Assembly: GCF_002854065.1 (NCBI RefSeq)
Contig: NZ_CP024147.1
Reading direction: 5' to 3' (one strand)
Length of the DNA stretch: 64,000 nucleotides
Origin: Escherichia coli
GTDB taxonomy: Bacteria; Pseudomonadota; Gammaproteobacteria; Enterobacterales; Enterobacteriaceae
How positions within the stretch are numbered: position 1 is the stretch's first letter; each line of letters begins with the position of its first letter. Below, piece after piece: positions 913-56,329 of the stretch. The position numbers were made by a program, and so were the translations under genes. The notes beneath the pieces were generated by a model. That model saw only the letters and a program-made list of their open reading frames with translations. It was not told the origin of the DNA and did no database searches.

Positions 913-1053
913 TTATGTGATCGCGCCCAGGTCATCCCTGACAGTAAATCCCAGTTCATTAGAAATAGCCTGCGCGGTTTCACGCAGTGGTTTCAGGAGA
1001 TTTTTCTCCCCCACCTGTTTCAGACGTGATGTCGAAAGCGAAATCGACACGGC
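913..1053 (-). pseudogene. 3' remnant of an IclR-family regulator gene, plausibly yiaJ
   Basis: Minus-strand translation gives AVSISLSTSRLKQVGEKNLLKPLRETAQAISNELGFTVRDDLGAIT*, the typical IclR-family C-terminus (xISISxPSSRL...ISxxLG). The frame has no start and breaks at about 1053, next to the stop of the AraC gene. Confidence 0.45.
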
Positions 1054-1054
1054 A

Positions 1055-1870
1055 CTACGAATTGATATGTTCCTTGCTGTAACGCCGCTTCCACGCTGCT
1101 GGCGTTAAACCGGTGTGTTTGCGAAAAATCTGCCGGAAATAGCCAACGTCATTAAACCCGCACAACGCCGCCACTTCCGTGAGCGATCGCGCTTCGCTAA
1201 TTAACAGCTTTTCGGCTTCGCGCACCCGCTGGCGATGGATTGCTTCTGTTAACGTCAGATGAAACACCCGCCGGTAGACGCGCCCAAGATAATCGGCATT
1301 GCAGTACAGCTCGCGGGCCAGAAGCGCCGTAGAAAGCGGGCGATGATATTGCGTGCGGATCAGTTTCTGCGCTTTCCAGGCAAGGGTGGTGCCTGCGCCA
1401 TCGGCCTGTTCATCAAGACGCGCGTCACGGGTGAGCTGCTGCAAAATGAGCAGCACAATAAACTCCAGCGCCGGAGTGCGTTGATGCTTTTCCTGTTCGC
1501 TTAAGAACTGGCGAAACAGGGCCACCAGCGCCTGCGGATCGACAACCTTCGTTTGTTGCGGCACGCTAAGATGAGTAAGCCAGCGAGGGTCGTTGTCCGG
1601 CGCTTTAACCTCAAAATGCAGCCAGTAAAATTTGAGATCGGCGGGAAAATCCTCCACCCCAACATGTTGTCGGTTCGGCCAGAGTAATAAACTCTCTCCC
1701 GCATCGACCAGAAATATCCGTTCTTCTTCCTGAATCGTTAATCGACCTTTTTCGACAAAGATAATTTCCCATGACTCCAGCCGCCTTGCAGGATGCCTCC
1801 CTACGCCACGGGAAATAAATAATCCACCATTTTGCACTTTAATCGGTAACGTCATGGATAATTCGAGCAT
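1055..1870 (-). CDS. AraC/XylS-family transcriptional regulator
   Basis: 271-aa ORF; C-terminal half has the double helix-turn-helix AraC signature (...AALCGFNDVGYFRQIFRKHTGLTPAAWKRR); divergent from the transporter gene. Start could be the ATG at 1870 or 1855. Confidence 0.8.
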   Translation of the reverse strand: MLELSMTLPIKVQNGGLFISRGVGRHPARRLESWEIIFVEKGRLTIQEEERIFLVDAGESLLLWPNRQHVGVEDFPADLKFYWLHFEVKAPDNDPRWLTHLSVPQQTKVVDPQALVALFRQFLSEQEKHQRTPALEFIVLLILQQLTRDARLDEQADGAGTTLAWKAQKLIRTQYHRPLSTALLARELYCNADYLGRVYRRVFHLTLTEAIHRQRVREAEKLLISEARSLTEVAALCGFNDVGYFRQIFRKHTGLTPAAWKRRYSKEHINS

Positions 1871-1893
1871 TGATATGTAATTTCCCGCTTATT

Positions 1894-1943
1894 CATTAAT
1901 GATTAAACACATTACCTTTTGATTATTAATCAAAAACATTAAT
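1894..1943. promoter_or_regulatory. candidate AraC-type operator: two direct repeats in the divergent promoter region
   Basis: ATTAATGATTAAACACATTA (1894-1914) and ATTAATCAAAAACATTAAT (1925-1943) are similar direct repeats about 31 bp apart between the regulator and the transporter gene. Confidence 0.3.
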
Positions 1944-2095
1944 TTCACCTGATCTATTTCACACTTTTAAATTCAGGTCGGAATCGTCACCTTTTTTTAC
2001 TCTTTTCTCGCCTTGTTGATATTCCCGTTCACGGCAGAATTAATCAGGTCATTTCAATAAAACTAAAAATTGCTCCCTATTCACGAGGAATATCT

Positions 2096-3496
2096 ATGAC
2101 CTCTACACCGATTACTACCGCTGATATCGCTAAAGGTAAAATTGACGATGCGTTATCTGTACGGGAAAAAATAGGCTACGGCCTGGGTGACGCAGGCGGC
2201 ACCGTAATAACTTGCCTGATCATGAATTTTCTCACCTTTTTCTACACCGACGTTTTTGGATTAACTCCGGCGCTGGTTGGCACGCTGTTTATTGCACTGC
2301 GCGTGTTTGATGCCATCTCCGACCCGGTGATGGGCGTCATTGCCGACCGGACGCAAAGTCGCTGGGGGCGCTTTCGTCCGTGGCAGCTATGGATTGCCAT
2401 TCCCATCGGCATTATCGGCATCCTGACGTTCACCGTGCCAGATGCCAGCATGGGAGTAAAAATCGCCTGGGCGTTCGGTACTTACCTGCTCCTTTCAGTC
2501 GGTTATACCGCCATCAACGTACCGTACTGCGCGCTGATCAACACCATGACCACCCGCCACAATGAAGTGATCTCCTGCCAGTCCTGGCGATTCGTTCTCT
2601 GTGGCGTAGCGGGATTTCTGGTTTCGGTAGGCTTACCGTGGATGGTAGATCTCTTCGGTCAGGGTAATGCCGCGCGCGGCTATCAATTGGGCGTCGGCGT
2701 GCTGTGCGCCATTGCCGTGGTGATGTTCCTGTGCTGTTTTTTCTGGGTTCGTGAACGGGTGCCACTCTCCACAATGGGGAAATTTACCCTGCGCGAACAT
2801 CTTGCCGGGCTGCGGAACAACGACCAACTGCTGCTGATGCTGGTCATGTCTTTCCTGCTGATTAACGTCTTTAACATTCGCGGCGGTGGGTATATGTACT
2901 TCATTACCTACGTCTTACAAGGCAGTACGGGCTACACGTCGCTGTTCTTCACCATGGTCACCTTCGCCTCCATTATCGGCTCGGTGATTGTCAGCCCGTT
3001 AACGCGGCGTTTCGATACCGTCAAAATTTACTACTACACCAACCTGCTCCTCGCTGCGCTGGCAGTGTTGATGTGGTTCCTGCCCTCCGGCCCGGCTTAT
3101 CAAACGCTGTGGCTGGCGGTGATCCTCGGTAATGGCGTAATTCTTGGCTTCACATTGCCACTGCACTTCTCATTGATGGCCTTTGCCGATGACTACGGCG
3201 AGTGGAAAACCCGCGTACGTTCTTCCGGCATGAACTTCGCCTTCAATCTGTTTTTCATCAAGCTGGCCTGGGCCTCCAGCGCCGGGATCATCAGCCTGCT
3301 GTTTATTTTTGTCGCCTACCAGCCTGGCGTGGAAAACCAGACCGCCAGTTCGCTTGGCGGGATCGCGGCGATGGAAACATTACTGCCTGCGCTATTCCAC
3401 CTGCTGCTGGCAGGGGCGATCCGCTTTTGCAAACTCAATCATCCTATGATGTCACGCATAGCTACCGACCTGCGTCAGCGTCATGTACAGCCTTAA
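2096..3496 (+). CDS. GPH-family (glycoside-pentoside-hexuronide:cation symporter) MFS sugar transporter
   Basis: 466-aa ORF, hydrophobic throughout; N-terminal GYGLGDAGG...[21 protein letters not shown] motif is typical of MelB/YicJ-type symporters. Confidence 0.85.
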
Positions 3497-3506
3497 GGAG
3501 CACAAG

Positions 3507-5477
3507 ATGAACATTTCGGAAGTCGATCTGCATAAACTGACGGTCAGCGATCCGTTCCTCGGTCAGTACCAACAACTGGTCCGCGACGTGGTGATTCCTT
3601 ATCAGTGGGATGCTTTGAACGATCGTATCCCAGAAGCGGAACCCAGCCATGCGATTGAAAACTTTCGCATTGCCGCCGGACTTCAGGAGGGTGAATTTTA
3701 CGGGATGGTGTTTCAGGACAGCGACGTCGCCAAATGGCTGGAAGCAGTAGCCTGGTCGCTGTGCCAGAAGCCGGACGCCGAACTGGAAAAAACCGCCGAC
3801 GAGGTGATTGAACTGGTCGCCTCCGCCCAGTGCGAAGACGGCTATCTCAATACTTACTTTACGGTAAAAGCACCCGAAGAACGCTGGAGCAATCTGGCGG
3901 AGTGTCATGAACTTTACTGCGCAGGTCATCTGATTGAAGCCGGAGTCGCCTTCTTCCAGGCCACGGGAAAACGGCGCTTGCTGGGGGTCGTTTGCCGCCT
4001 GGCCGATCATATCGACAGCGTATTTGGTCCAGATGAAAGTAAGTTACACGGTTATCCTGGTCACCCGGAAATTGAACTGGCACTAATGCGCCTGTATGAA
4101 GTGACTGAAGAGCCGCGCTACCTGGCGCTGACGAACTATTTTGTCGAACAGCGTGGTGCGCAACCGCACTATTACGACCAGGAATATGAAAAGCGCGGGC
4201 AGACATCGCACTGGCACACCTACGGCCCGGCATGGATGGTGAAAGACAAAGCCTACAGCCAGGCACATTTGCCCCTTGCGCAACAGCAAACCGCCATCGG
4301 TCACGCGGTACGTTTTGTCTATCTGATGACCGGCGTCGCGCATCTCGCGCGTTTAAGTCACGATGACAGCAAGCGTCAGGACTGCCTGCGGCTGTGGAAC
4401 AATATGGCCCAGCGTCAGTTATATATTACCGGCGGCATTGGCTCGCAAAGCAGCGGCGAAGCGTTCACTAGCGATTACGATCTGCCGAATGACACGGTAT
4501 ACGCTGAAAGTTGCGCCTCCATCGGCCTGATGATGTTTGCCCGACGAATGCTGGAAATGGAAGGCGACAGTCAATATGCCGATGTGATGGAGCGCGCACT
4601 GTACAACACCGTGCTCGGCGGCATGGCGCTGGATGGCAAACATTTCTTCTATGTGAATCCGCTGGAAGTACATCCAAAATCGCTGAAATTCAACCATATC
4701 TACGATCACGTTAAACCGATCCGCCAGCGTTGGTTTGGCTGCGCTTGTTGTCCGCCAAATATCGCCCGCGTGCTGACCTCGATTGGTCATTATCTCTACA
4801 CGCCGCGTGAAGATGCGTTGTATATCAACATATACGCAGGAAACAGCATGGAAGTGCCGGTAGAAAATGGCACGCTGCGCCTGCGGGTTAGCGGGAACTA
4901 TCCGTGGCAGGAGCAGGTGACGATTGCGGTTGAATCGCCCCAGCCGGTACGTCATACGCTGGCTTTACGTCTGCCGGACTGGTGCACACAGCCGCAGATC
5001 ATATTGAATGGGGAAGAGGTCGAGCAGGATATTCGTAAAGGGTATTTGCACATTACCCGCGAATGGCAGGAGGGCGATACGCTGAATCTGACTTTGCCGA
5101 TGCCGGTACGCCGCGTTTACGGTAACCCGCTGGTGCGTCACGTCGCCGGAAAAGTGGCGATTCAGCGCGGCCCGCTGGTGTATTGCCTGGAACAGGCCGA
5201 CAACGGCGAGTCACTGCATAATCTGTGGCTGCCCACCGATGCGCCATTTACGACATTTGAAGGCAAGGGATTGTTTAGCCATAAGATCTTAATCCAGGCA
5301 CCGGGTTACCGGTATGAACAGAGCAATCCAGAGCAGCAACCGCTGTGGCATTACGACAGCGCGCCAGCCAAACGCCAGACGCAAACTCTGACCTTTATCC
5401 CATGGTTTAGCTGGGCCAACCGGGGTGAAGGCGAAATGCGGATCTGGGTGAATGAGGAAAAGCATTGCCATCCGTAG
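3507..5477 (+). CDS. glycoside hydrolase family 127 (DUF1680, beta-L-arabinofuranosidase-like)
   Basis: Start set at ATG 3507, preceded by AAGGAG; 656 aa; Cys-rich WFGCACCPPN motif resembles the GH127 catalytic/zinc site; lies 10 bp after the transporter stop, so probably co-transcribed. Confidence 0.75.
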   Translation: MNISEVDLHKLTVSDPFLGQYQQLVRDVVIPYQWDALNDRIPEAEPSHAIENFRIAAGLQEGEFYGMVFQDSDVAKWLEAVAWSLCQKPDAELEKTADEVIELVASAQCEDGYLNTYFTVKAPEERWSNLAECHELYCAGHLIEAGVAFFQATGKRRLLGVVCRLADHIDSVFGPDESKLHGYPGHPEIELALMRLYEVTEEPRYLALTNYFVEQRGAQPHYYDQEYEKRGQTSHWHTYGPAWMVKDKAYSQAHLPLAQQQTAIGHAVRFVYLMTGVAHLARLSHDDSKRQDCLRLWNNMAQRQLYITGGIGSQSSGEAFTSDYDLPNDTVYAESCASIGLMMFARRMLEMEGDSQYADVMERALYNTVLGGMALDGKHFFYVNPLEVHPKSLKFNHIYDHVKPIRQRWFGCACCPPNIARVLTSIGHYLYTPREDALYINIYAGNSMEVPVENGTLRLRVSGNYPWQEQVTIAVESPQPVRHTLALRLPDWCTQPQIILNGEEVEQDIRKGYLHITREWQEGDTLNLTLPMPVRRVYGNPLVRHVAGKVAIQRGPLVYCLEQADNGESLHNLWLPTDAPFTTFEGKGLFSHKILIQAPGYRYEQSNPEQQPLWHYDSAPAKRQTQTLTFIPWFSWANRGEGEMRIWVNEEKHCHP

Positions 5478-6470: not shown

Positions 6471-7445
6471 ATGACAAAATTACAACTTAAGTACCGGGAG
6501 TTAAAAATTATCTCGGTAATCGCTGCCAGTGAAAATATCAGCCATGCTGCGACTGTACTTGGCATCGCACAGGCCAACGTCAGCAAATACCTTGCTGATT
6601 TTGAATCAAAAGTGGGTTTAAAAGTCTTTGACCGAACCACCCGGCAGCTGATGCTCACACCTTTTGGTACCGCGCTGTTACCGTACATCAACGACATGCT
6701 GGACAGAAACGAGCAGCTTAATAATTTTATTGCAGATTATAAGCATGAGAAACGTGGTCGGGTCACCATCTACGCCCCAACCGGCATAATTACCTATTTA
6801 TCCAAACATGTAATCGATAAAATTAAAGATATCGGTGATATAACCTTATCGCTAAAAACCTGCAATCTTGAGCGTAATGCCTTTTATGAAGGCGTCGAAT
6901 TTCCTGATGATTGTGATGTTTTAATCAGCTACGCTCCACCAAAAGATGAATCGCTGGTTGCCAGTTTTATTACACAATATGCCGTAACCGCTTATGCCAG
7001 CCAGCGCTATCTTGAGAAACATCCTATTAGCCGTCCTGACGAACTCGAACATCACTCCTGTATTTTGATCGACTCGATGATGATCGACGACGCGAATATC
7101 TGGCGCTTCAACGTCGCCGGGAGTAAAGAGGTGCGGGATTATCGCGTGAAGGGAAATTACGTTTGCGACAACACGCAATCTGCGCTGGAGCTGGCACGAA
7201 ATCACCTGGGGATTGTGTTTGCGCCAGACAAAAGTGTGCAGAGAGATCTGCAAGACGGCACGCTGGTGCCCTGCTTTCAGCACCCGTATGAATGGTGGCT
7301 GGATCTGGTGGCTATCTTCCGTAAACGGGAATACCAGCCCTGGCGGGTCCAGTATGTGCTGGATGAAATGCTGCGTGAAATTCGCCACCAGCTTGCTCAG
7401 TCGCAGCAACTGCGGCCTGAACAAGCGGCGGAAAGCGAAGATTAA
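6471..7445 (+). CDS. yiaU: LysR-family transcriptional regulator
   Basis: 324-aa ORF; N-terminal HTH ([23 protein letters not shown]); divergent from yiaT. Confidence 0.85.
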
Positions 7446-8578
7446 TGATCGAGATAAAGGTAATGCACCCAGCTGGTCATGCGTAATAACACTTTGCGCA
7501 TCACCGAGACATGGCTGAAATGATCAGAGTAGACCGCCACCTGGGCGTAAATACCGTCTGGTAAAGCGCTCAAATCAGTGTGCTCATTCAGTTCAATGGT
7601 CGCGATAACGCCATCTGAACCCGGCGCTGTGTTTAACGTCTGTAAGGTGCCGGTCGACTGATAAGCTCCGCCGGGAACGGCTGGACTAATGGCTGCCAGC
7701 TTACCGCTGAATACCTTACCTGGCAGAGCATTAAACACCACTTCCGCATCGTCGCCAGGGGCCAGTCGCAGCAAGGAGTTCTGACGGAACTGCGCCACAA
7801 TTTGTCGTTTCTGATCGGGTATAAACACCATCACCGGACGTAGCGGCAGCGACGCGGCATAGGTACCCGGACGAATCAGTACCTGGGTCACATAACCATC
7901 GCTCGGCGCACGCACTATCGTCTGCTCAAGGTTATATTTTGCTTCCGCGAGCTGCGCTTTCAGGCTGGCGATTTGAGAATGTTCACCCAACACCAGGCTA
8001 TCCAGCTGGCTCTGGATCTGTTTTTGTTCCGCCGCCGATGACTTCACGGAGGCTTCCTGCGCCAGATAATTTTGCCGCGCCACATCGATATCGCGTTCTG
8101 AAAACGGGTTTACTTTCGCCTGGCTGCCGCGTGCGTAACGCTGATACTCTTTAGCGAATTTATCCCGCGTGGCCTTTGCCTGCTGAGTATTCGCCGCCAT
8201 CTCATCTAACTCTGCGCCCAACGCCCGCTGTTTATGTTCTGCGGTAACGATATCCGCCATCAGCCGATCCACCTGCGCCTGATAACGCGTCGGGTCCAGT
8301 CGAAATAGCACCTCACCTTTTTTAATTAGCGTATTTTTCTTGTCCGTCACTTCGATCACCACGCCTGTCACCTGCGGGACAACAGGAATAGAAATAACCG
8401 CTTTTTGCGCTTTAAAGGTATACGGATGGTTATAGTTCATTAACAGAATTAAACCGCTGACAATAAATATTCCACCCAGGGCCGCGGTGGGAATGGTCCA
8501 TTTATTTACAGGAATTTTGAAGATCTTAAACATTGCCCATGCGAAAGCCACATAGGTCAAAATAATCAGTAAATCCAT
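7442..8578 (-). CDS. yiaV: HlyD-family membrane fusion / periplasmic adaptor protein
   Basis: 378-aa ORF; N-terminal TM anchor then coiled-coil-rich region; about 75-80% identical by eye to the ORF at 17841-18977. Confidence 0.85.
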
Positions 8579-8583
8579 AAGTA

Positions 8584-8907
8584 TTACTCGGCAGAAGAGG
8601 ATTTGATGTCAGCGAGCTGTTTCTCCAGCCCAGCAATACGCTGTTGTAGTTGCACAACGGAGGAGTCATGGTTTTGCATTCCCCATCCCCGCTCCGGGCG
8701 GTAAAGCGTGGCCCAAATCCACAAAAATGGCCAGATAACATGCAGCGTAAAAAGACTCACCCAACCAGCAACATGAATGGCGTCGGCATGAGGATGATTA
8801 CGTTTTTTAGCAATCAGGTAGGGAATATCATGTAAAATAATAATCCCATAGAATATCACCAGAAATACAAAAATAAGCACTCCCAGTGCAAAATAGTCCA
8901 GGAACAT
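8584..8907 (-). CDS. yiaW: small inner-membrane protein (DUF3302)
   Basis: 107 aa from [17 protein letters not shown]...; 5 bp upstream of yiaV; paralogous to the ORF at 18980-19342. Confidence 0.8.
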
Positions 8908-9338
8908 ATTTCCCTCAGAGAATATAAAAAAGAACAATTAACACATATTATGAAATGCCATGATGCAGTGCAATTTCCTTATTTATATAACGACATATTA
9001 TTTTTTATATACTTTCTGAAGTGTGCTGCGTGGCTTTTCAACAGGTCGAGGTTTATCATATTGAAATAATGGAACTATTGGCCAAATTTATGATTAAAAA
9101 CCGTAAAACATCCACAATGCAGATTAAGCGTATTAAACCTTCAATAATCTACCGTTTATTGCTGATTGTCCTCGGAATACCAATGGTGATTTACGGTCTG
9201 GTTTGCCCGCTCACCATCGAAACGCGAGATTAAACTCCTGGCAAAACACACCCCAGAAACGCACTTTTGTTGGCGTAGTCTGGGTTATTGCACACGTAGG
9301 TTTAAAACGTAAATTGTAACAACGTGCGCTTTGTTTAT

Positions 9339-12167: not shown

Positions 12168-12182
12168 GGTAATGACTCCAAC

Positions 12183-12686
12183 TTATTGATAGTGTTTTAT
12201 GTTCAGATAATGCCCGATGACTTTGTCATGCAGCTCCACCGATTTTGAGAACGACAGCGACTTCCGTCCCAGCCGTGCCAGGTGCTGCCTCAGATTCAGG
12301 TTATGCCGCTCAATTCGCTGCGTATATCGCTTGCTGATTACGTGCAGCTTTCCCTTCAGGCGGGATTCATACAGCGGCCAGCCATCCGTCATCCATATCA
12401 CCACGTCAAAGGGTGACAGCAGGCTCATAAGACGCCCCAGCGTCGCCATAGTGCGTTCACCGAATACGTGCGCAACAACCGTCTTCCGGAGACTGTCATA
12501 CGCGTAAAACAGCCAGCGCTGGCGCGATTTAGCCCCGACATAGCCCCACTGTTCGTCCATTTCCGCGCAGACGATGACGTCACTGCCCGGCTGTATGCGC
12601 GAGGTTACCGACTGCGGCCTGAGTTTTTTAAGTGACGTAAAATCGTGTTGAGGCCAACGCCCATAATGCGGGCAGTTGCCCGGCAT
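12183..12686 (-). CDS. insB: IS1 InsB (expressed as InsAB' by -1 frameshift)
   Basis: 167-aa [28 protein letters not shown]..., overlapping insA in the -1 frame. Confidence 0.95.
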
Positions 12687-12880
12687 CCAACGCCATTCAT
12701 GGCCATATCAATGATTTTCTGGTGCGTACCGGGTTGAGAAGCGGTGTAAGTGAACTGCAGTTGCCATGTTTTACGGCAGTGAGAGCAGAGATAGCGCTGA
12801 TGTCCGGCGGTGCTTTTGCCGTTACGCACCACCCCGTCAGTAGCTGAACAGGAGGGACAGCTGATAGAAACAGAAGCCAC
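12605..12880 (-). CDS. insA: IS1 InsA
   Basis: 91 aa, [43 protein letters not shown]... Confidence 0.95.
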
Positions 12881-12963
12881 TGGAGCACCTCAAAAACACC
12901 ATCATACACTAAATCAGTAAGTTGGCAGCATCACCTATTATTGTTTAGCAAAATTAATCTAAT

Positions 12964-13007: not shown

Positions 13008-13035
13008 CATAAGAATTTTGGGTAATGACTCCAAC

Positions 13036-13539
13036 TTATTGATAGTGTTTTATGTTCAGATAATGCCCGATGACTTTGTCATGCAGCTCCACCGATTTTG
13101 AGAACGACAGCGACTTCCGTCCCAGCCGTGCCAGGTGCTGCCTCAGATTCAGGTTATGCCGCTCAATTCGCTGCGTATATCGCTTGCTGATTACGTGCAG
13201 CTTTCCCTTCAGGCGGGATTCATACAGCGGCCAGCCATCCGTCATCCATATCACCACGTCAAAGGGTGACAGCAGGCTCATAAGACGCCCCAGCGTCGCC
13301 ATAGTGCGTTCACCGAATACGTGCGCAACAACCGTCTTCCGGAGCCTGTCATACGCGTAAAACAGCCAGCGCTGGCGCGATTTAGCCCCGACGTATCCCC
13401 ACTGTTCGTCCATTTCCGCGCAGACGATGACGTCACTGCCCGGCTGTATGCGCGAGGTTACCGACTGCGGCCTGAGTTTTTTAAATGGCGGAAAATCGTG
13501 TTGAGGCCAACGCCCATAATGCGGGCGGTTGCCCGGCAT
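13036..13539 (-). CDS. insB: IS1 InsB (variant)
   Basis: 167 aa; [21 protein letters not shown]... vs copy 1 [21 protein letters not shown]...; YDRLRKT vs YDSLRKT. Confidence 0.9.
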
Positions 13540-13733
13540 CCAACGCCATTCATGGCCATATCAATGATTTTCTGGTGCGTACCGGGTTGAGAAGCGGTGT
13601 AAGTGAACTGCAGTTGCCATGTTTTACGGCAGTGAGAGCAGAGATAGCGCTGATGTCCGGCAGTGCTTTTGCCGTTACGCACCACCCCATCAGTAGCTGA
13701 ACAGGAGGGACAGCTGATAGAAACAGAAGCCAC
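13458..13733 (-). CDS. insA: IS1 InsA (variant)
   Basis: 91 aa; differs from copy 1 (…NTIFRHLKN… vs …NTILRHLKN…). Confidence 0.9.
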
Positions 13734-13831
13734 TGGAGCACCTCAAAAACACCATCATACACTAAATCAGTAAGTTGGCAGCATCACCGAATTTTGTATT
13801 AATTTATTTTAAAACTTAATTAATCATTTCC

Positions 13832-15676
13832 TTATTTTTCCGGAAATAATAATGCGTCGCGCAATAAATGATCATTTCCACGACGACGCGTAAAGCCAAT
13901 GCGGTCAAAATATTCCAGGATTTGAATCGCCAGTTTTCGCCCAACCCCTAAGCGATCGCGGAAATCCGCCGCGCAGGTTGAACCACATTCCTGATCGAGA
14001 TCGCGGATCATATTGGCAAACTCGACAATCCGATCGTTACGGTAATAACGATCTTTGACGATCGCGGTAATTATCCCCTGTTGGGCCGCCTGGCGTAGCG
14101 TCAGACGCATTGCCTGCTCGTCGGTTCCCGTCTCTTTTGCCAGGTCACGCACCCACCACGGTTCGTCACCAAACAGCGGCTCTGCTTTTTGCCAGATGGC
14201 CTGCTGCTCTTCGCTGAAGCCCGCTTTGTGATCCGGCAGATGCAGCCAACCGTGATGACTGAGGATGTCGCCGCTTTCGCGCATCTTTTCAATCAGCAAC
14301 AGTACCAGCGCTTCATCTTCCATTGGCAACGCCATACGTCGCAGACGTTCGCGCCCAGGACCAGGTTCATCGCGATGTTGCTCATGATAAGTCGCTAATG
14401 TGTCGAGAATTTTCCGCTGCCAGCGGGCGGCAACTGGCGCATTCAACAAGCTATAACCAGCCTGAATATAGCCCGGCTGTTGCAGTAGTTCGCGCATCCC
14501 TTCGCCGTTGAGCTGGCGTGCCCAGGCGAAATCCGCAAGGTTAACCGCTCCGCGTTCCAGATGAACAGATAACGCATCGGCATCGCTCTGCGCCCGTGCA
14601 AGAGACGCCAGCCATTGCAGATATTCCGGCTTACGTTTACCGCGACGCGGCGGGTTAAGCATCACCACACGTGCCCCCGCCAGCGTATTGCGGGCCGAGA
14701 TATCGCGCAACACTAAGCGATCGTTATCCGCCAGCCACAGCGGCGTGTCGAACACCAGCTCGGCAAGGTTATCTTCCAGCAGCGAAACGCGTCCCGTAAC
14801 GTGGCTGGCGGCGTGGTGAATATGCAGCGGCTGCCACTGGGTCAGCGGCGTATGGGTTTGAAGCTCGACAATCACCCGCGTGAACGGCTCTGGCGGCACA
14901 TCGGCAAGCAGCCAGTCGCCACGGTTAATCTGCTCTTTTTCCGCATCCCCCGCGATGTTAAGCGCGATACGCTGGCCGGCATGAGCGGTTTCTGTTGGCT
15001 GGTTTTGTGCATGCAGCGCACGTACACGCATCGGTTTATTTACACCAGTCAGCCATAGTGAATCGCCTACCGTCACTTCCCCGCTTAACGCCGTACCGGT
15101 GACGACCAGCCCGGCACCTTTTACGGTAAATGCGCGGTCGATCGCGAGGCGGAAACTATGTTGGCTGGCGTGTTCACGTTCTGGTAACTGAAGCAGATGC
15201 TCGCGCAGGGCATCAATTCCCCGACCCTCGGTTGCTGCGGTGATAAACAGTTTTGCCTCAGCAAAACCGTATTCCCGCAGCACCTCCTTTACCTGGCGTT
15301 CAACCTCATTAACACGCGCTTCGTCCACGCGATCGGCTTTGGTCAGCGCCACTGTCAGCATCGGGTTACCGGTCAGCTGCAAAATCGCCAGATGCTCACG
15401 GGTCTGTGCCATCACACCGTCATCGCACGCCACCACCAACAGCGCGTGATCGATACCACCAACGCCCGCCAGCATGTTGGAAAGAAACTTTTCATGACCG
15501 GGTACGTCGATAAAACCAGGCACGCGACCATCCGGCTGCGGCCAGTAGGCATAGCCGAGATCGATGGTCATGCCGCGCTTTTTTTCTTCCGGCAGACGAT
15601 CGGCATTTACGCCAGTAATCGCCTGCAATAAGGTTGTTTTGCCGTGGTCAACGTGTCCGGCAGTCGCAATAATCAT
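13832..15676 (-). CDS. selB: selenocysteine-specific translation elongation factor
   Basis: 614-aa ORF; N-terminal GTPase motifs ([24 protein letters not shown]). Confidence 0.95.
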
Positions 15677-17064
15677 TTCAACAACATCTCCAAAAACCGT
15701 TGCTCATCTTCAAGGCAGCGTAAATCCAGCCACAATCGTCCGTCATAAATACGACCAATCACCGGCACTGGCAATTCACGCCAGCGGGCGGCTAATGACT
15801 CAAGGTGGCTACCGCGTCCATCATGGGGTGTAAACGTTAATGCCGCGCTCGGCAGGCGATCAACCGGCAGCGAACCACTGCCAATCTGCGAAAGACATGG
15901 CATAACCTGTACCGCAAACTCCGCGCCGTAATGTGCGGCAAGGGGAGCCTGTAAACGTTGTGCCTGGATTTGAATGACCTCTGCGCTGCGGGTAAGCAGG
16001 CGCAGGGTCGGTAATTTTTCACTCAGAGCTTCAGGGTGTAAATAAAGACGCAACGTGGCTTCCAACGCCGCGAGGGTCATTTTATCCGCGCGTAATGCAC
16101 GCTTCAGCGGGTGGCTTTGCAGGCGGGCGATCATCTCTTTTTTACCAACAATAATTCCTGCCTGCGGCCCGCCTAACAACTTGTCGCCGGAGAAGCTCAC
16201 CAGACTGACGCCCGCCGCAATCAACTCCTGCGGCATTGGCTCTTTCGGCAAACCGTACTGGCTAAGATCGACCAGCGAGCCACTGCCTAAATCAGTCACT
16301 ACGGGAACATCCAGCTCTTTGCCGAGCGCCACCAGTTCAGCTTCGTCTATCGCTTTGGTGAACCCCTGAATGCTGTAGTTACTGGTATGTACTTTCATCA
16401 ACAGTGCGGTATTTTCATTCACCGCCTGACGATAATCATTCGCGTGCGTGCGGTTGGTGGTCCCTACTTCGTGTAGGGTGCAGCCTGCCTGACGCATAAC
16501 ATCGGGAATACGAAACGCGCCGCCAATCTCCACCAGTTCGCCGCGAGATACCACTACCTCTTTCCCGCTGGCAATGGCCGCCAACATCAATAACACCGCC
16601 GCCGCATTGTTATTAACGATACAGGCATCTTCCGCCCCCGTAATACGGCACAGCAACTGCGCCAGCGCACGATCGCGATGTCCGCGTCCGGCGTCGTCCA
16701 GATCGTACTCGAGGGTCACTGGCGAACGCATAGCCTGCGCAACGGCTTCCACCGCGGCTTCCGCCTGTAAAGCTCGCCCAAGGTTGGTATGCAGCACGGT
16801 TCCCGTCAGGTTGATCACCGGACGCAGCGCACTCTGCGCCTCTTTCGTCAACCGGGCATCGACTTCTTGCGCCCAGTTTTCACACCACGCAGGCAGCGTC
16901 TGGCTGCCACGAATCACTTCTCGCGCTTCGTCGAGCATCTGACGCAACAATTCCACCACGCGGGTGTGACCATAAGTATCACGCAAAGAAAGGAAGGAGC
17001 TATCGCGCAATAAGCGATCAATAGCCGGAAGTTGACTATAGAGGGAACGCGTTTCGGTTGTCAT
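15673..17064 (-). CDS. selA: L-seryl-tRNA(Sec) selenium transferase
   Basis: 463-aa ORF; PLP-enzyme signature ([13 protein letters not shown]); 4-bp overlap with selB start. Confidence 0.95.
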
Positions 17065-17161
17065 AGGAAACCTGGCTGATCAAGGCCCTCTCACACGGAG
17101 AAGAGCGTTTAACATAACCACGGATTGTAACGTGAGATGGGTCAGGAGGACATATCGCGCA

Positions 17162-17770
17162 TCAAGCCTTTGGCGGTTCGGTGCGAGCAAAACTTTCGCG
17201 GCTAAACAGGTTTTCGACCAGTTTGACTAAGTGTGGGCGGTCGACACACCAACCTGGCGCAACGCGGCGGAAATTGAGATATCCGACGGCACAGGCAATA
17301 GCGATAGTCGCCAGATTGACCGTATCGGTTTTGAGTGTGCCATCGACCAGATATCCTTCCAGCACATCCAGACTGCGGTTGATTTTCTCCCGCTGGCGTA
17401 ACAATTCATCTTCAGACTGCTGCGCCGCTGGACGCGCCTGTTCACGCACCGATACCAGCCCGGCATCCATAATGCCATCCGCCAGTGCCTCAATTTTGCG
17501 CACCCGCAACGACTCCAGCGGATCGCGCGGCAACATCGCCGGAGCGACATTCATTAATTCAATATATTCAGCGATGATCGGCGAATCAAACCAGCATTCG
17601 CCCTCTTCGGTCACCAGCACCGGCACTTTTCCTAACGGGTTAAATTGCGCCACGCCGTTGTCCGCGTTATAGGGCAGTTCATTAATAAATTCGAAAGTTA
17701 TGCCCTTTTCTAACAACAGAATAGAAAGTTTGCGTACAAACGGGCTGGTGTAGCTACCGACGAGTTTCAT
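17162..17770 (-). CDS. yibF: glutathione S-transferase-like protein
   Basis: 202-aa [31 protein letters not shown]..., GST N-terminal thioredoxin-like fold. Confidence 0.9.
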
Positions 17771-17840
17771 GCCGAGTCCTTTGTGCGAGGAAAAATATCA
17801 GTATGGCTCAGGCTCACGCAAAACACAGGTGATATAAGTC

Positions 17841-18977
17841 TCAATGATCCAAATAAAGATAATGCATCCAGCTGGTCATTCTTAGCAGCACTTTTCGCAT
17901 CACCGAAACATGGCTGAAATGGTCGGAGTAAACTGCCACCTGGGCGTAAATGCCGTCGGGTAAGGCATCGATATCATCGTTAGGGTCCAGTTCAATGGTT
18001 CCCAGCACACCGTCCGTGCCGGGCACGACCGTTAATGATTGCAATACCCCCTGCGCCTGATAAGAACCGCCTGGCACGACAGGTAAAATACTGGTCAGTT
18101 TGCCGTGGAACACCTGCCCAGGTAGCGCGTTAAACACCACTTCCGCATCATCGCCAGGTTTCAGACGTAACAGCGAGTTTTGCCGAAATTGGGCGACAAT
18201 TTGCCGTTTTTGCTCGGGGATGAAAACCATCACCGGACGCAACGGCAAGGCAGCTGCGTATGTGCCTGGGCGGATCAGTACCTGAGTGACGTAGCCATTG
18301 CTTGGTGCGCGAATGACGGTCTGTTCAAGGTTATATTTTGCTTCTGTAAGTTGCGCTCTTAAGCTCACAATCTGCGATTGCTCGCCGTTGACCATACTGT
18401 CGAGCTGACTCTGGATCTGCGCCTGCTCCGCCACCGAGCCTTTCACTAACGCATCCTGCGCGAGGAAATTTTGCCGCGCATCGTCGATGTCACGTTCCGA
18501 GAACGGATTCACCGCCGCCTGGCTGCCTTTCAGATAACGTTGATAATTTTTAAACAGACGGTCGCGCTCCGCTGAAACCTGGGTGGTGTTGGCCTGCGCT
18601 TCAGTGAGCTGCGCGCGCAGCGTCTTTATATTATGCGTCGCCGTCATCAGGTCAGCCTGAAGTCTGTCAACTCGCGCCTGGTAACGAACCGGGTCGAGCT
18701 TAAAAAGCACCTCGCCCTTTTGAATAAGCTGATTATTCTTGTCAGTGACTTCAGTAACAATTCCCGTCACCTGTGGCGTGATGGGGATCGCTATCACTGC
18801 CTTTTGCGCGGTAAAAGTGTAAGGGTGGTTGTAGTTCATCAACAAAATCAAACCACTCACCAGAAACACGCCTCCCAGCGCCGCCGTCGCCAGCGTCCAC
18901 TGATTCACCGGAATGCGGAAGATTTTAAAGACCGCCCACGCCAACGCCACGTAAGTTAAAACAATCAATAGATCCAT
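17841..18977 (-). CDS. yibH: HlyD-family membrane fusion / periplasmic adaptor protein (paralog of yiaV)
   Basis: 378-aa ORF colinear with yiaV ([27 protein letters not shown]..., shared C-terminus ...[19 protein letters not shown]). Confidence 0.85.
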
Positions 18978-18979
18978 AA

Positions 18980-19342
18980 TTAGATCTCCGGGAACGTGGA
19001 ATAGTCAGTCTTTTTCTCGGCGGCGAGTTGGTGCTCCAGCCGGGAAATTCGGTCAGAAAGTGCGGCGATTTCCGGGTCAGTCGCTTTCTCCTGCGACGCA
19101 ACATGTGACTGCATACCCCAGCCACGCTCCGGTTGATAGAGCGTCGCCCAGATCCACAGAAACGGCCAGATAACATGCAGAGTAAACAGGCTCACCCAGC
19201 CCGCCGTATGAATAGCGTCGGCATGGGGATGGTTGCGCTTTTTGGCAATCAGATAAGGGATGTCATGTATCGCGATGATTCCATAAAAAATCACCAGAAA
19301 GACGAAGATCAGCACTCCCAACGCGAAATAGTTTAGAAACAT
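18980..19342 (-). CDS. yibI: small inner-membrane protein DUF3302 (paralog of yiaW)
   Basis: 120-aa [26 protein letters not shown]...; 2 bp upstream of yibH. Confidence 0.85.
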
Positions 19343-19878: not shown

Positions 19879-21792
19879 ATGTCATCCGATATTAAGATCA
19901 AAGTGCAAAGCTTTGGTCGTTTCCTCAGCAACATGGTGATGCCAAATATCGGCGCGTTTATCGCGTGGGGTATCATCACCGCGTTATTTATTCCAACAGG
20001 GTGGTTACCGAACGAGACGCTGGCGAAGCTGGTCGGGCCGATGATCACTTATCTCCTGCCGCTGCTGATCGGTTATACCGGTGGTAAGCTGGTAGGCGGC
20101 GAACGTGGCGGCGTAGTCGGTGCCATCACCACCATGGGCGTTATCGTCGGCGCAGACATGCCGATGTTCCTCGGTTCTATGATTGCAGGTCCGCTGGGCG
20201 GCTGGTGCATTAAGCACTTCGACCGCTGGGTAGACGGTAAGATCAAATCCGGTTTTGAGATGCTGGTGAATAACTTCTCCGCAGGCATCATCGGGATGAT
20301 CCTCGCCATTCTGGCATTTCTCGGCATTGGCCCGATTGTTGAAGCCCTGTCCAAAATGCTGGCTGCGGGCGTTAACTTCATGGTTGTCCATGACATGCTG
20401 CCGCTGGCGTCTATCTTTGTTGAACCGGCGAAAATCCTGTTCCTCAACAACGCCATTAACCACGGTATCTTCTCGCCGCTGGGTATTCAGCAGTCCCATG
20501 AACTGGGTAAATCCATATTCTTCCTGATTGAAGCTAACCCAGGTCCGGGTATGGGCGTGCTGCTGGCGTACATGTTCTTTGGTCGTGGTAGCGCTAAACA
20601 GTCTGCGGGCGGTGCGGCAATTATCCACTTCCTGGGTGGTATCCACGAAATTTACTTCCCGTATGTGTTGATGAATCCGCGTCTGATCCTGGCCGTTATC
20701 CTCGGCGGTATGACTGGCGTGTTCACGCTGACTATCCTGGGCGGTGGTCTGGTTTCTCCGGCATCTCCGGGTTCTATCCTTGCTGTACTGGCGATGACAC
20801 CAAAAGGTGCTTATTTCGCTAACATCGCGGGTGTGTGTGCGGCGATGGCTGTCTCCTTTGTTGTCTCTGCTATTTTGCTGAAAACCAGCAAAGTGAAAGA
20901 AGAAGATGATATTGAAGCAGCAACTCGTCGTATGCAGGACATGAAAGCTGAGTCTAAAGGTGCATCTCCGCTGTCTGCGGGCGATGTGACTAACGACCTG
21001 AGCCACGTACGTAAAATCATCGTTGCCTGTGACGCCGGTATGGGTTCAAGTGCGATGGGCGCAGGCGTGCTGCGTAAGAAAATTCAGGATGCAGGTCTGT
21101 CGCAGATTTCGGTCACTAACAGTGCGATCAACAACCTGCCGCCAGATGTGGACCTCGTCATCACTCACCGTGACCTGACCGAACGCGCTATGCGCCAGGT
21201 TCCGCAGGCACAGCATATTTCGCTGACCAACTTCCTCGACAGCGGCCTGTACACCAGCCTGACCGAACGTCTGGTTGCTGCCCAGCGCCATACTGAAAAC
21301 GAAGTGAAAGTGAAAGACAGTCTGAAAGACAGCTTTGACGATTCCAGTGCTAACCTGTTCAAACTGGGCGCGGAGAACATCTTCCTCGGTCGCAAAGCGG
21401 CCACCAAAGAAGAAGCGATTCGTTTTGCTGGCGAGCAGCTGGTGAAAGGCGGTTACGTTGAGCCGGAATACGTTCAGGCGATGCTGGATCGTGAAAAACT
21501 GACCCCGACTTATCTGGGTGAGTCTATCGCGGTGCCACACGGTACGGTTGAAGCGAAAGATCGCGTACTGAAAACGGGCGTGGTGTTCTGCCAGTACCCG
21601 GAAGGCGTGCGCTTCGGTGAAGAAGAAGATGACATTGCCCGTCTGGTGATTGGTATTGCTGCCCGTAACAACGAGCACATTCAGGTTATCACCAGCCTGA
21701 CCAATGCACTGGATGATGAGTCCGTCATCGAGCGTCTGGCACACACCACCAGCGTGGATGAAGTGCTGGAACTGCTGGCAGGTCATAAGTAA
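19879..21792 (+). CDS. mtlA: PTS mannitol-specific EIICBA component
   Basis: 637-aa [34 protein letters not shown]..., membrane EIIC followed by EIIB and EIIA domains. Confidence 0.95.
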
Positions 21793-25897: not shown

Positions 25898-28800
25898 ATG
25901 AACAAAATATTTAAAGTAATCTGGAATCCGGCGACGGGCAGTTATAGCGTTGCCAGCGAAACGGCGAAGAGCCGTGGTAAGAAATCTGGTCGCAGTAAGC
26001 TGTTAATTTCTGCACTGGTTGCGGGTGGAATGTTGTCGTCGTTTGGGGCAAATGCCAGTGCGACACTTGATGGAGGTTCATCTATTGAAGACCCATCAAT
26101 GGGTACTCGCTGGCTTGCAATCGGTGAGGGCGCAAAAGCAACATCCGCGTTACAAGGTGATGGATATACCGTTGCGATAGGGCTTAATGCACTAGCAGAT
26201 GGTCAGGGTAGTCTTGCATTCGGCTACGATACCCACTCATCGGGTGATCGTTCTATCTCTATTGGCCAATATGCTGAATCCGCAGGAAACAGAACCATTG
26301 CTTTCGGTAGTGGGTCCAAGGCAATAGGAGACTATTCGCTTGCATTAGGAGGAACTACCTATACAGGTGGTGACTACTCCATTGCAGTGGGTAGGGATTC
26401 GAGGGTAGAAGACGATGCTGATTACGCCTCCTCTTTTGGTTACGGCGCCAAGGCAGGCGGGGTCTATAGCATGGCATTCGGTTTCGAAACTAAAGCTAAT
26501 GCCGTTGACAGCCTGGCAATGGGACGACTAGCTACAGCCAGTGCAGCAAACGCTATTGCGATAGGTGCAGAGGCTGAAGCCGCTGAAAATGCGATGGCTA
26601 TTGGCAATAATGCGAAGGCAAAAGGGACTAATAGCATGGCAATGGGGTTCGGAAGCCACGCCGATAAAGTCAATACTATCGCATTAGGAAATGGCAGCCA
26701 GGCTCTGGCAGATAATGCAATCGCCATAGGCCAGGGCAACAAAGCTGATGGCGTGGATGCCATCGCTCTGGGTAATGGTAGCCAGTCGAGAGGCTTAAAC
26801 ACCATTGCCTTAGGCACAGCCAGTAATGCAACTGGTGATAAGAGTCTTGCGCTTGGTAGTGATACCACTGCCAACGGTATTAACTCCGTCGCATTGGGTG
26901 CAGGTTCCACTGCGGATTTAGACAATACCGTCTCTGTCGACAATAGTTCATTAAAACGCAAGATCGTTAATGTGAAAAATGGCGCGATCAAGTCTGACAG
27001 TTACGATGCCATTAATGGTTCACAGCTTTATGCCATTAGCGACTCGGTAGCACAAAGGCTTGGGGGAGGATCATCAGTAGATGTTGATGACGGTACTGTT
27101 ACAGCACCAACCTACAATTTAAAAAATGGTAGCAAAAAGAACGTAGGGGCTGCGCTCACTGTACTTGATGAAAACACCCTGCAATGGGACCAAATCAAAG
27201 GCAAATACAGCGCTGCTCATGGTACTAGTAGCCCAACTGCCAGCGTAATCACCGATGTTGCGGATGGCACGATTTCAGCCTCCAGTAAGGAGGCGGTTAA
27301 CGGCTCCCAACTGCAAGCTACCAATGACGATGTTGAGGCCAACACCACCAATATCACCAACCTGACGGATTCCGTTGGTGACCTTCAGGCTGATGCCCTG
27401 CTCTGGAACGAAACTAAAAAGGCATTCAGTGCAGCTCACGGCCAGGATACCACCAGCAAAATCACCAACGTTAAAGATGGCGACCTGACGGCTGGCAGCA
27501 CTGATGCCGTTAACGGCTCTCAGCTGAAAACCACCAACGATGCTGTGGCGACGAATACCACCAATATCGCCAATAACACTTCCAATATTGCCACTAACAC
27601 CACCAACATCTCTAACCTGACTGAGACGGTGACTAACCTTGGTGAAGATGCGCTGAAATGGGATAAGGACAATTGTGTCTTCACGGCAGCTCATGGCACC
27701 GATGCCACCAGCAAAATCACCAATGTTAAAGATGGCGACCTGACGGCTGGCAGCACTGATGCCGTTAACGGCTCTCAGCTGAAAACTACCAACGATGCTG
27801 TGGCGACGAATACCACCAATATCGCCAATAACACTTCCAATATTGCCACTAACTCCACCAACATCTCTAACCTGACTGAGACGGTGACTAATCTTGGTGA
27901 GGATGCTCTGAAATGGGATAAGGACAATGGTGTCTTCACGGCAGCTCACGGCACCGAGGCCACCAGCAAAATCACCAACGTTAAAGATGCCGACCTGACG
28001 GCTGACAGCACCGATGCCGTTAACGGCTCTCAGCTGAAAACCACCAACGATGCCGTGGCGACGAATACCACCAATATCGCCACTAACACTTCCAATATTG
28101 CCACTAACACCACCAACATCTCTAACCTGACTGAGACGGTGACTAACCTTGGTGAAGATGCGCTGAAATGGGATAAGGACAATGGTGTATTCACGGCAGC
28201 TCACGGCACAGAAGCCACCAGCAAAATCACCAACGTTAAAGATGCCGACCTGACGGCTGGCAGCACTGATGCCGTTAACGGCTCCCAGCTGAAAACCACC
28301 AACGATGCTGTGGCGACGAATACCACCAATATTGCCACTAACACCACCAACATCTCTAACCTGACTGAGACGGTGACTAATCTTGGTGAGGATGCGCTGA
28401 AATGGGATAAGGACAATGGTGTATTCACGGCAGCTCATGGCAACAACACCGCCAGCAAAATCACCAATATCCTGGACGGCACAGTCACTGCAACCAGTTC
28501 CGATGCCATTAACGGCAGCCAGCTTTATGACTTAAGCAGCAATATCGCCACCTACTTCGGCGGCAATGCTTCTGTGAATACTGACGGTGTGTTTACCGGT
28601 CCAACCTACAAAATCGGTGAAACAAATTATTATAACGTCGGCGATGCACTGGCTGCGATTAACTCCTCATTTAGCACGTCTCTCGGCGATGCCCTGCTTT
28701 GGGACGCTTCCGTAGATAAATTTAGTGCCAAACACGGTACTAATGGTGACGCAAGCGTGATCACTGATGTCGCAAACGGGGATGTTTCAAGCACAAGCTC

Positions 28801-31111
28801 TGATGCTGTGAACGGCTCGCAACTCTATACCACCAATAAGTACGTCGTAGATGCGCTGGGTGGTGGTGCCGAAGTCAATGCAGACGGCACCATCACTGCG
28901 CCGACGTACACCATTGCTAATGCTGATTACGATAACGTCGGTGATGCCCTGAACGCCATCGACACCACTCTCGATGATGCTCTGCTCTGGGATACGGACG
29001 CCGGTGAAAATGGTGCATTTAGCGCCGCTCACGGAAAAGATAAAACTGCCAGTGTAATCACTAACGTCGCAAACGGTGCAATTTCCTCCACCAGCAGCGA
29101 TGCTGTTAACGGCTCACAACTCTATACTACCAATCAGTACATAGTCGATGCGCTGGGTGGTGACGCAGAAGTTAACGCTGACGGCACCATCACCGCACCG
29201 ACTTACACCATTGCGAATACCGATTACAACAACGTCGGTGACGCCCTGGATGCGCTTGATGATAACGCCCTGCTGTGGGATGAGACTGCCAATGGCGGTG
29301 CAGGAGCCTACAATGCCAGCCATGACGGTAAAGCCAGCATCATCACTAATGTCGCTGATGGCAGTATTAGTGAGGACAGCACCGATGCAGTGAACGGTTC
29401 TCAGTTGAATGCGACGAATATGATGATTGAGCAGAACAGCCAAATCATCAATCAGCTTGCTGGTAATACCGACGCAACCTATATCGAAGAAAATGGCGCT
29501 GGTATCAACTACGTTCGTACTAACGACAACGGTTTAGCCTTTAACGATGCAAGCGCCTCTGGTGTCGGCGCTACAGCTGTAGGTTATAACGCTGTCGCGT
29601 CTGGTGCCAGCAGCGTAGCCATTGGTCAGAACAGCAGCAGCACCGTTGATACCGGTATTGCGCTGGGTAGCAGCTCCGTTTCCAGCCGTGTAATTGCCAA
29701 AGGTTCTCGTGACACTAGCGTAACGGAAAATGGCGTGGTGATTGGTTATGACACCACTGACGGCGAACTGCTAGGTGCATTGTCAATTGGTGATGACGGT
29801 AAATACCGCCAAATCATCAACGTAGCTGATGGTTCAGAAGCCCATGACGCCGTTACGGTTCGTCAGTTGCAGAACGCTATTGGAGCGGTCGCCACTACGC
29901 CAACCAAGTACTTTCACGCCAACTCAACGGCAGAAGACTCACTGGCCGTTGGTGAAGACTCGCTGGCAATGGGTGCGAAAACTGTCGTTAATGGTAATGC
30001 AGGTATTGGTATCGGTTTGAACACTCTGGTTCTGGCTGATGCGATCAACGGCATTGCTATCGGCAGTAACGCACGCGCAAACCATGCAAACAGTATTGCA
30101 ATGGGTAACGGTTCTCAGACCACCCGTGGTGCACAGACTGGCTACACCGCCTACAACATGGACGCACCGCAGAACTCTGTAGGTGAGTTTTCTGTTGGTA
30201 GTGAAGACGGTCAACGTCAGATCACCAACGTCGCAGCTGGTTCAGCGGATACCGATGCGGTTAACGTGGGTCAGTTGAAAGTCACTGATGAGCGCGTAGC
30301 GCAAAATACCCAGAGCATTACTAACCTGAACAATCAGGTCACTAATCTGGATACTCGCGTTACTAATATCGAAAACGGTATTGGCGATATCGTGACCACC
30401 GGTAGCACCAAGTACTTCAAGACCAACACCGATGGCGTAGATGCCAACGCCCAGGGTAAAGATAGCGTTGCGATTGGTTCTGGTTCCATTGCTGCCGCTG
30501 ACAACAGCGTCGCACTGGGTACAGGCTCCGTGGCCAACGAAGAAAACACGATCTCTGTGGGTTCTTCTACCAACCAGCGCCGTATCACCAACGTAGCTGC
30601 CGGTGTTAATGCCACCGATGCGGTTAACGTGTCGCAGCTGAAATCTTCTGAAGCAGGCGGCGTTCGCTACGACACCAAAGCTGATGGCTCTATCGACTAC
30701 AGCAACATCACTCTTGGTGGTGGCAACGGAGGTACGACTCGCATCAGCAACGTTTCCGCAGGTGTGAACAACAACGACGCGGTGAACTACGCGCAGTTGA
30801 AGCAAAGCGTGCAGGAAACAAAGCAATACACCGATCAGCGCATGGTTGAGATGGATAACAAACTGTCTAAAACTGAAAGCAAGTTGAGCGGGGGTATCGC
30901 TTCTGCAATGGCAATGACCGGTCTGCCGCAGGCTTACACTCCAGGTGCCAGCATGGCTTCTATTGGTGGCGGTACTTACAACGGTGAATCGGCAGTTGCT
31001 TTAGGTGTATCGATGGTGAGCGCCAATGGTCGTTGGGTCTACAAATTACAAGGTAGTACCAATAGCCAGGGTGAATACTCCGCCGCACTCGGTGCCGGTA
31101 TTCAGTGGTAA
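25898..31111 (+). CDS. upaG: trimeric autotransporter adhesin (YadA-like; UpaG/EhaG/SadA family)
   Basis: 1737-aa ORF; extended signal peptide [27 protein letters not shown]...; repetitive head/neck/stalk motifs; C-terminal YadA-type anchor (...[15 protein letters not shown]...[38 protein letters not shown]). Position between yibL and lldP fits what I recall for upaG/ehaG/sadA. Confidence 0.85.
27392..28390 (+). repeat. in-frame tandem repeats inside the adhesin gene (255-bp / 85-aa unit)
   Basis: Units start at 27392, 27647, 27902 and 28157 (the last 21 bp shorter); a degenerate fifth starts at 28391. Units are more than 95% identical by eye ([29 protein letters not shown]...TNLGE). Confidence 0.85.
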
Positions 31112-49066: not shown

Positions 49067-49075
49067 GAGCTCTGC

Positions 49076-50122: not shown

Positions 50123-50125
50123 CGG

Positions 50126-51100: not shown

Positions 51101-51113
51101 CATCGGAGATAAG

Positions 51114-52322: not shown

Positions 52323-52323
52323 A

Positions 52324-52356
52324 AAATAAAAAAGGCTGCATAATGCGGCCTTTTTA
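52324..52356. terminator. bidirectional rho-independent terminator between convergent waaL and outer-core genes
   Basis: aaaaaaggctgcat-aatgcggcctttttatttatt: GC stem flanked by A- and T-tracts. Confidence 0.6.
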
Positions 52357-52357
52357 T

Positions 52358-53500: not shown

Positions 53501-53508
53501 CTCGAATG

Positions 53509-54522: not shown

Positions 54523-54546
54523 TTTAATTACCCTTCATCATAATCA

Positions 54547-55254: not shown

Positions 55255-55279
55255 ATTGAATTATTTTAACCTTAAATCT

Positions 55280-56287: not shown

Positions 56288-56329
56288 ATTTATTCTGTAT
56301 CCAAAATTTTGGCAAAAATAAGTTACGGG

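Follow-up and report, generated by a model that had tools for sequence, protein, structure and literature searches.

An uninterrupted yibH–yibF spacer in Escherichia coli as the probable ancestral, unoccupied allele of the RhsA locus

The window analysed here is a 64-kb stretch of the E. coli chromosome (64,000 nucleotides), and all positions refer to it unless another sequence is named. According to its open reading frame (ORF) list, selB (13832–15676), selA (15673–17064), yibF, yibH and yibI follow one another along the minus strand, and mtlA (19879–21792), on the plus strand, is next after yibI. Exactly 70 bp, positions 17771–17840, separate the yibF start codon, which reads CAT on the plus strand (17768–17770), from the yibH stop codon, which reads TCA on the plus strand (17841–17843). 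No ORF of the list is contained entirely in this interval. The interval divides into two unequal segments and a single base, distinguished by what they share with the chromosome of K-12 (Table 1).

Table 1 Features of the yibF–yibH junction and its flanks.
Feature	Position	Strand	Evidence
yibF, glutathione S-transferase-like, 202 aa; left flank	17162..17770	-	ORF; NCBIfam NF007682; K-12 identity
37 bp immediately 5' of the yibF start codon, common to empty and Rhs-occupied alleles	17771..17807	-	blastn against K-12
AAGGA Shine-Dalgarno-like motif, in the 37-bp segment upstream of yibF	17781-17777	-	
CCATACTGAT block, conserved across genera, in the 37-bp segment upstream of yibF	17796-17805	-	14-sequence alignment
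32-bp predicted ancestral spacer, TCAGGCTCACGCAAAACACAGGTGATATAAGT on the plus strand; without counterpart in K-12-type alleles	17808..17839	.	blastn breakpoints
One shared base, then yibH (HlyD-family membrane-fusion protein, 378 aa, 17841-18977); right flank	17840..18977	-	blastn; ORF; family matches
yibI, DUF3302, 120 aa; co-oriented with and upstream of yibH and yibF	18980..19342	-	ORF; annotation of near-identical genome

The identity of the flanking genes is well supported. The 202-aa product matches the NCBIfam equivalog NF007682 (YibF-type glutathione S-transferase) over its full length (1–202 of 202, E = 7e-123), and family matches of the 378-aa product place it among the HlyD/EmrA-type adaptors. 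The RefSeq annotation of near-identical genomes names the same two genes yibF and yibH. Compared with K-12, 202 of 202 residues are identical in YibF and 378 of 378 in YibH, and YibI is 100% identical. The yibH–yibI pair (17841–19342) has a paralogous pair in the window, yiaV–yiaW (7442–8937), which likewise encodes an HlyD-family adaptor and a DUF3302 protein. The pairs have the same orientation, are separated by 9 kb and share about 73% nucleotide identity over 685 bp.

In K-12 MG1655 (NC_000913.3) yibF and yibH are 8,287 bp apart, and the interval holds rhsA, yibA, yibJ', yibG, yibS', yibW', yibV and yibU'. The initial annotation had given 70 bp as the distance between the yibF start and the yibH stop and had placed the RhsA element of K-12, with its associated ORFs, at this point; the ORF list and the sequence confirm the first statement to the base, and the MG1655 annotation agrees with the second. 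It had also proposed an alignment with the K-12 junctions. In this alignment, done with blastn, window positions 17000–17807 correspond to positions 4186–4993 of the extracted MG1655 locus (L001) with 99.75% identity, and window positions 17840–19000 to L001 positions 13243–14403 with 97.9% identity. Between these matching flanks lie 8,249 bp in K-12 (L001 4994–13242) and 32 bp in the window (17808–17839). The K-12 RhsA element (rhsA-yibA-yibJ-yibG-yibS-yibW-yibV-yibU) therefore occupies the same chromosomal point, between the same flanks, as the junction in the window, and it possesses a YD-repeat core, tips and immunity genes, whereas the window lacks all three. In each of the occupied alleles compared (K-12, TUM18530 and O157:H7) homology to the window stops exactly at both ends of the element, which is the structure of an unoccupied allele. 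A 10-nt identity (GGTGATATAA) between the 32-bp spacer and the region upstream of rhsA in K-12 was considered and dismissed as a relic, about 0.4 such matches being expected by chance.

The search for Rhs sequence covered the whole window. The 8,249-bp K-12 element gave only chance matches of 14–23 nt in the 64 kb by blastn, and tblastn with RhsA, YibA, YibJ, YibG and YibV returned nothing at E ≤ 1. The window contains no large GC-rich core ORF (about 1,200–1,400 aa) with YD repeats of the clade I RhsA type, and tblastn detected in it neither an AT-rich C-terminal tip nor an immunity gene nor orphan tip fragments. The junction had been described at the outset as free of Rhs core and tip fragments, and these negative blastn and tblastn results uphold that description. 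The window is 99.96–99.98% identical to E. coli strain 100416 (NZ_CM128593.1; human stool, The Gambia), two IS1 copies and a repeat difference in an adhesin gene excepted, and between avtA/ysaA and mutM the RefSeq annotation of that genome lists nothing related to RHS.

The two IS1 copies are the main differences between the window and strain 100416, its closest public genome. They occupy positions 12168–12935 and 13021–13788, between yiaY and selB, and are 768 bp long each, 85 bp apart, in the same orientation and distinguished by 9 differences. Through the first copy yiaY is truncated at its 5' end, and 208 bp are deleted there in comparison with strain 100416; the second copy is accompanied by an 8-bp target duplication, GAATTTTG. 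The adhesin is a YadA-like trimeric autotransporter of the EhaG/UpaG type (25898–31111; 1,737 aa) with internal repeats, whose repeat content differs from that of strain 100416, where the gene measures 5,277 bp. Another variable cassette of the window (913–5477) consists of a remnant of the IclR-type gene yiaJ followed by genes for an AraC-family regulator, an MFS transporter and a GH127 glycoside hydrolase, and lies at the place of the yiaK–sgbE operon of K-12. The lipopolysaccharide core (waa) cluster at 48134–59299 has the order rfaD-F-C-L, waaQ-G-P-O-Y, a GT8 gene and a GlcNAc transferase gene, an order that presumably denotes the R3 core type. Within it rfaC is a 324-aa ORF in the window and is annotated as frameshifted in strain 100416.

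The state of the junction was determined in 5,426 complete E. coli genomes. The empty junction was found in 1,523 of the 5,426 (28%), both as an unbroken match to a 1.5-kb query across the junction and with a 68-bp query centred on the 32-bp spacer; 80-bp queries spanning the K-12-type junctions detected the left one in 3,751/5,426 genomes (69%) and the right one in 3,729/5,426 (69%), and the remainder, about 150/5,426 (about 3%), show neither state, all of these percentages being descriptive only, for an unevenly sampled collection that is no population sample. The matches to the 68-bp query cover at least 80% of its length in 1,522 of the 1,523 empty-junction genomes. At least 99% identity to the empty junction of the window is seen in 379 genomes, O145:H28 included, and 1,143 genomes carry a variant with two substitutions, of which strain 536 and a Nissle derivative are sampled matches. 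The empty allele thus recurs in independent E. coli genomes (1,523/5,426). The 32-bp spacer was not found inside occupied alleles, as the 68-bp query matched only the 1,523 genomes with the empty site. In the three occupied strains examined the breakpoints are identical and the content and length between them differ: 8,249 bp in K-12, 9,511 bp in TUM18530 and 6,495 bp in O157:H7. The 9,511 bp of TUM18530 comprise an rhsC-like core, ybfB, an rhsB fragment, yhhH, yibA' and Imm57. The remainder is exemplified by QL57EC, in which an IS1-associated deletion extends from the 5' end of yibF through yibT. E. coli has essentially two alleles at this position, the occupied one being of single origin.

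The ancestral arrangement was examined through a scan for YibF in one genome per species, which yielded 55 loci, E. fergusonii not being among them; neighbouring proteins were identified by tblastn. No RhsA match was detected by tblastn at any of the 55 outgroup yibF loci. In 13 outgroup loci yibI–yibH lies directly upstream of yibF. The arrangement is seen in two E. coli representatives, E. whittamii, Escherichia sp. E1V33, Citrobacter amalonaticus, C. koseri, another Citrobacter, Kluyvera cryocrescens, Lelliottia, Huaxiibacter, Pluralibacter and several further Enterobacteriaceae. The more distant Enterobacter, Kosakonia, Buttiauxella and Mangrovibacter lack yibHI, and there mtlA neighbours yibF. 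The spacer between yibH and yibF measures 70 bp in every Escherichia that has the adjacency, 72 bp in C. amalonaticus and 61–92 bp in the other genera, with the exception of C. koseri (174 bp). In an alignment of 14 spacer sequences, namely 13 outgroup or reference loci and the window, the 32-bp sequence is nearly identical in E. whittamii and Escherichia sp. E1V33 and can still be aligned in C. amalonaticus; it is thus common to species that do not carry the element. Because the Escherichia outgroups conserve these 32 bp, which can also be recognised in C. amalonaticus, and because the gene order yibI-yibH-yibF is found in outgroups, the empty site is best regarded as ancestral. As judged from these comparisons, the junction is the never-interrupted form of the sequence and not the scar of a deletion.

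That the junction arose when a resident RhsA element was deleted or excised has been considered, since large deletions do occur at the locus, as in QL57EC, which lost the stretch from yibF' through yibT beside an IS1, and since Rhs loci decay and lose genes (Jackson et al. 2009, PMC2935791). However, the junction holds 32 bp that are missing from occupied alleles and conserved in outgroup species, so that a deletion in an occupied allele could not have recreated the spacer. Neither residual element ends nor a target-site duplication nor any other footprint was found at the junction, and repeats by which an exact excision might be driven are lacking in the K-12 element. An excision scar is thus effectively refuted and is given only a very remote probability.

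A short junction might also be produced by the assembly process, through collapse of an Rhs repeat. Rhs cores are present in several copies, and such repeats fragment or mislead assemblies; the assembly of strain HH97 (NZ_CP116409.1) contains 2.4 kb of low-complexity junk exactly at the yibH–yibF spacer. Nonetheless, 1,523 independent complete genomes, 536 and Nissle-type strains among them, share the junction, as do other species, and the collapse of a repeat would not yield a conserved 32-bp spacer. The chance that the junction in the window is such an artefact is practically nil. The HH97 insert itself (locus L006, 3608–6000) is unannotated, lies within the 32-bp spacer and is made of GC-rich homopolymer-like sequence that gives way to long A/T runs, with proline/glycine-rich pseudo-ORFs only. 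It contains no credible ORF and has no Rfam match. It was judged an assembly artefact and not a real element, from its homopolymer-like sequence and from the lack of annotation and of an Rfam match.

With both a scar and an artefact set aside, the 70-bp interval is very probably the original, uninterrupted spacer between yibH and yibF, that is, the unoccupied allele of the RhsA locus, the 32 bp having been replaced by an Rhs insertion in other strains. The proposed course of events begins, in an ancestor of most non-B2 E. coli, with the entry of a composite Rhs element, in which a GC-rich core gene with YD repeats is combined with AT-rich toxin tips, immunity genes and orphan fragments; this entry would have replaced the 32 bp of spacer that correspond to window positions 17808–17839. 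On the yibF side 37 bp would have survived the insertion, and on the yibH side all sequence starting with the base that follows the stop codon. Thereafter the occupied allele would have changed in its internal content and been passed between lineages through homologous recombination in the conserved flanks, and lineages such as that of the present strain would have either retained the ancestral allele or got it back.

The structure of the K-12 element bears on how the insertion took place. Terminal inverted repeats are not detectable in it above shuffled controls (score 12 against a shuffle mean of 11.7), and neither is a flanking direct repeat of the kind left by target-site duplication (score 9 against a shuffle mean of 10.5). 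Its composition is foreign to the locus, with 62% GC in the core and 39% in the remainder, compared with 53% in the flanks. The lack of repeats, the foreign composition and the single breakpoint pair argue for one illegitimate insertion with replacement. One historical event of this kind, followed by homologous recombination, fits the data, and a repeatedly hit site does not. Later movement of either allele probably occurred by homologous recombination in the flanks. Consistent with such movement, flank haplotypes do not group according to occupancy: identity of the window to the occupied TUM18530 is 99.0% (left) and 99.3% (right), that to the empty strain 536 is 97.7%, and that to K-12 is about 99.7% on the left and 97.4–97.9% on the right.

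The same haplotypes raise the question of whether the ancestral sequence is primary in this lineage. It may be secondary, an ancestor of the strain having had its RhsA element swapped out by homologous recombination, in the yibF/selA and yibH/yibI flanks, with DNA of a donor that had no Rhs. That the flanks of the window are nearer to those of TUM18530 than to those of the empty B2 strain 536 would be in keeping with a swap; the mosaic comparison with K-12 (99.7% on the left, 97.4% on the right) is the expected product of recombination around the site, and the empty allele occurs in scattered non-B2 strains such as O145:H28, whereas O157:H7 is occupied. However, the same flank mosaic could arise by movement of the occupied allele, and an empty allele that was swapped in would be indistinguishable in sequence from one inherited vertically. 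A secondary acquisition is thus considered unlikely, though it deserves some weight, and on either course the sequence at the junction would be the ancestral one.

Two further Escherichia loci suggest that the occupied allele has a history of more than one step, with no effect on the verdict for the window. In the E. albertii representative NBRC 107761 (locus L014, 89–838) a YiiM-like gene for a MOSC-domain protein, instead of yibH, adjoins yibF. Homology to the window stops at base 17807, as it does for the Rhs insertion, and some 17 bp past the equivalent of this base are similar to the left terminus of the K-12 element; the contig is cut off 838 bp upstream. Escherichia sp. MOD1-EC7003 (locus L013, 1–2962) has a K-12-type left junction (147 bp, 94% identity) and a yibU-like segment (79% identity), between which lie two unassigned small ORFs and the remnant of an ISAs1/H-repeat transposase. 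No Rhs core is present in the 2.9 kb available, the contig stopping short of yibH. The MOD1-EC7003 locus may represent a decayed Rhs element or a forerunner of one.

Three unrelated sequences adjoin yibF at the 17807/17808 boundary: the yibH-proximal ancestral spacer, the Rhs element and the YiiM-like MOSC gene of E. albertii. All three leave the 37 bp in place, which begin with the CCATACTGAT block. This boundary could be a point at which rearrangements break the sequence repeatedly, or the upstream edge of a yibF control region that is essential, although the likelihood of this is judged to be slim. If it were so, the Rhs insertion would have rewired yibF from read-through out of yibIH to a promoter made partly of element DNA. 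Within the 37-bp segment upstream of yibF, the CCATACTGAT block is kept from Escherichia to Lelliottia and Kluyvera in the alignment, and the rest of the spacer varies. To go by this conservation, the CCATACTGAT block may be part of the promoter or control region of yibF, or a candidate site for a regulator.

A scan of the 70-bp spacer for promoter- and terminator-like consensus sequences gave none, and the spacer has no stable RNA fold, its z score of +1.25 being no better than that of shuffled sequences. A TTGCGT-16 nt-GATATT pair, noticed by eye across the boundary of the 32-bp and 37-bp segments, scores 7/12, which is too weak for a promoter claim. In the empty allele yibF is probably read through from yibI–yibH, with yibI as the first gene of a predicted yibI-yibH(-yibF) unit, because the genes are co-oriented, are only 70 bp apart and have no terminator between them. 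Read-through from yibIH into yibF would be impossible in K-12, since there the 8.2-kb element, which is oppositely transcribed, intervenes. SELEX and y-ome papers mention yibF and rhsA and contain nothing useful on the yibF promoter.

The polymorphism as such is an ordinary one and is already known, from work of the Hill laboratory and from Jackson et al. 2009. Feulner et al. in 1990 reportedly described a natural strain without RhsA (RhsA-null, 'Rhs0') in which 32 bp of unrelated sequence stand in place of 8,249 bp of K-12. The present alignment independently arrives at the same two figures, 8,249 bp and 32 bp, and there is no difference in substance from what was reportedly found. The survey of Jackson et al. 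2009 (BMC Genomics 10:584, PMC2935791), made at the gene level on 20 strains, lists the interval between yibF and yibH as rhs locus 10, which is present in some E. coli and Shigella strains and missing from others. Its flanking genes and chromosomal position are those of the junction described here. Locus 10 was inferred there to be younger than the split from Rhs-poor pathogenic strains and to have arisen through duplication of the element at locus 5 (Jackson et al. 2009, PMC2935791), and an ancestral empty junction agrees with this inference. That survey gives neither the junction sequence nor the outgroup spacer, both of which are provided here.

The initial annotation had called the junction an empty site at a known Rhs integration point. 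The position is indeed a published variable one, rhs locus 10 of Jackson et al. 2009. The word 'empty' can be refined, from the conservation of the 32 bp in outgroups, to the ancestral configuration. The term 'integration point' is overstated, since about 69% of the genomes share one breakpoint pair and the K-12 element has neither terminal repeats nor a target duplication.

What is added here are the counts over 5,426 genomes and the recognition that the '32 unrelated bp' would be an ancestral spacer conserved into other genera. A short yibH–yibF spacer is to be read as the native state and as neither damage nor misassembly, and a strain that has it is without the RhsA toxin/immunity module at the yibF–yibH position, which is useful to annotators; beyond such bookkeeping the importance is small. 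The junction can serve as a simple PCR or in-silico marker of the presence or absence of RhsA. For E. coli as a species, the picture of two alleles, with 28% of the genomes empty, about 69% occupied with one breakpoint pair and about 3% in other states, argues for a single entry of RhsA that would later have moved only by homologous recombination.
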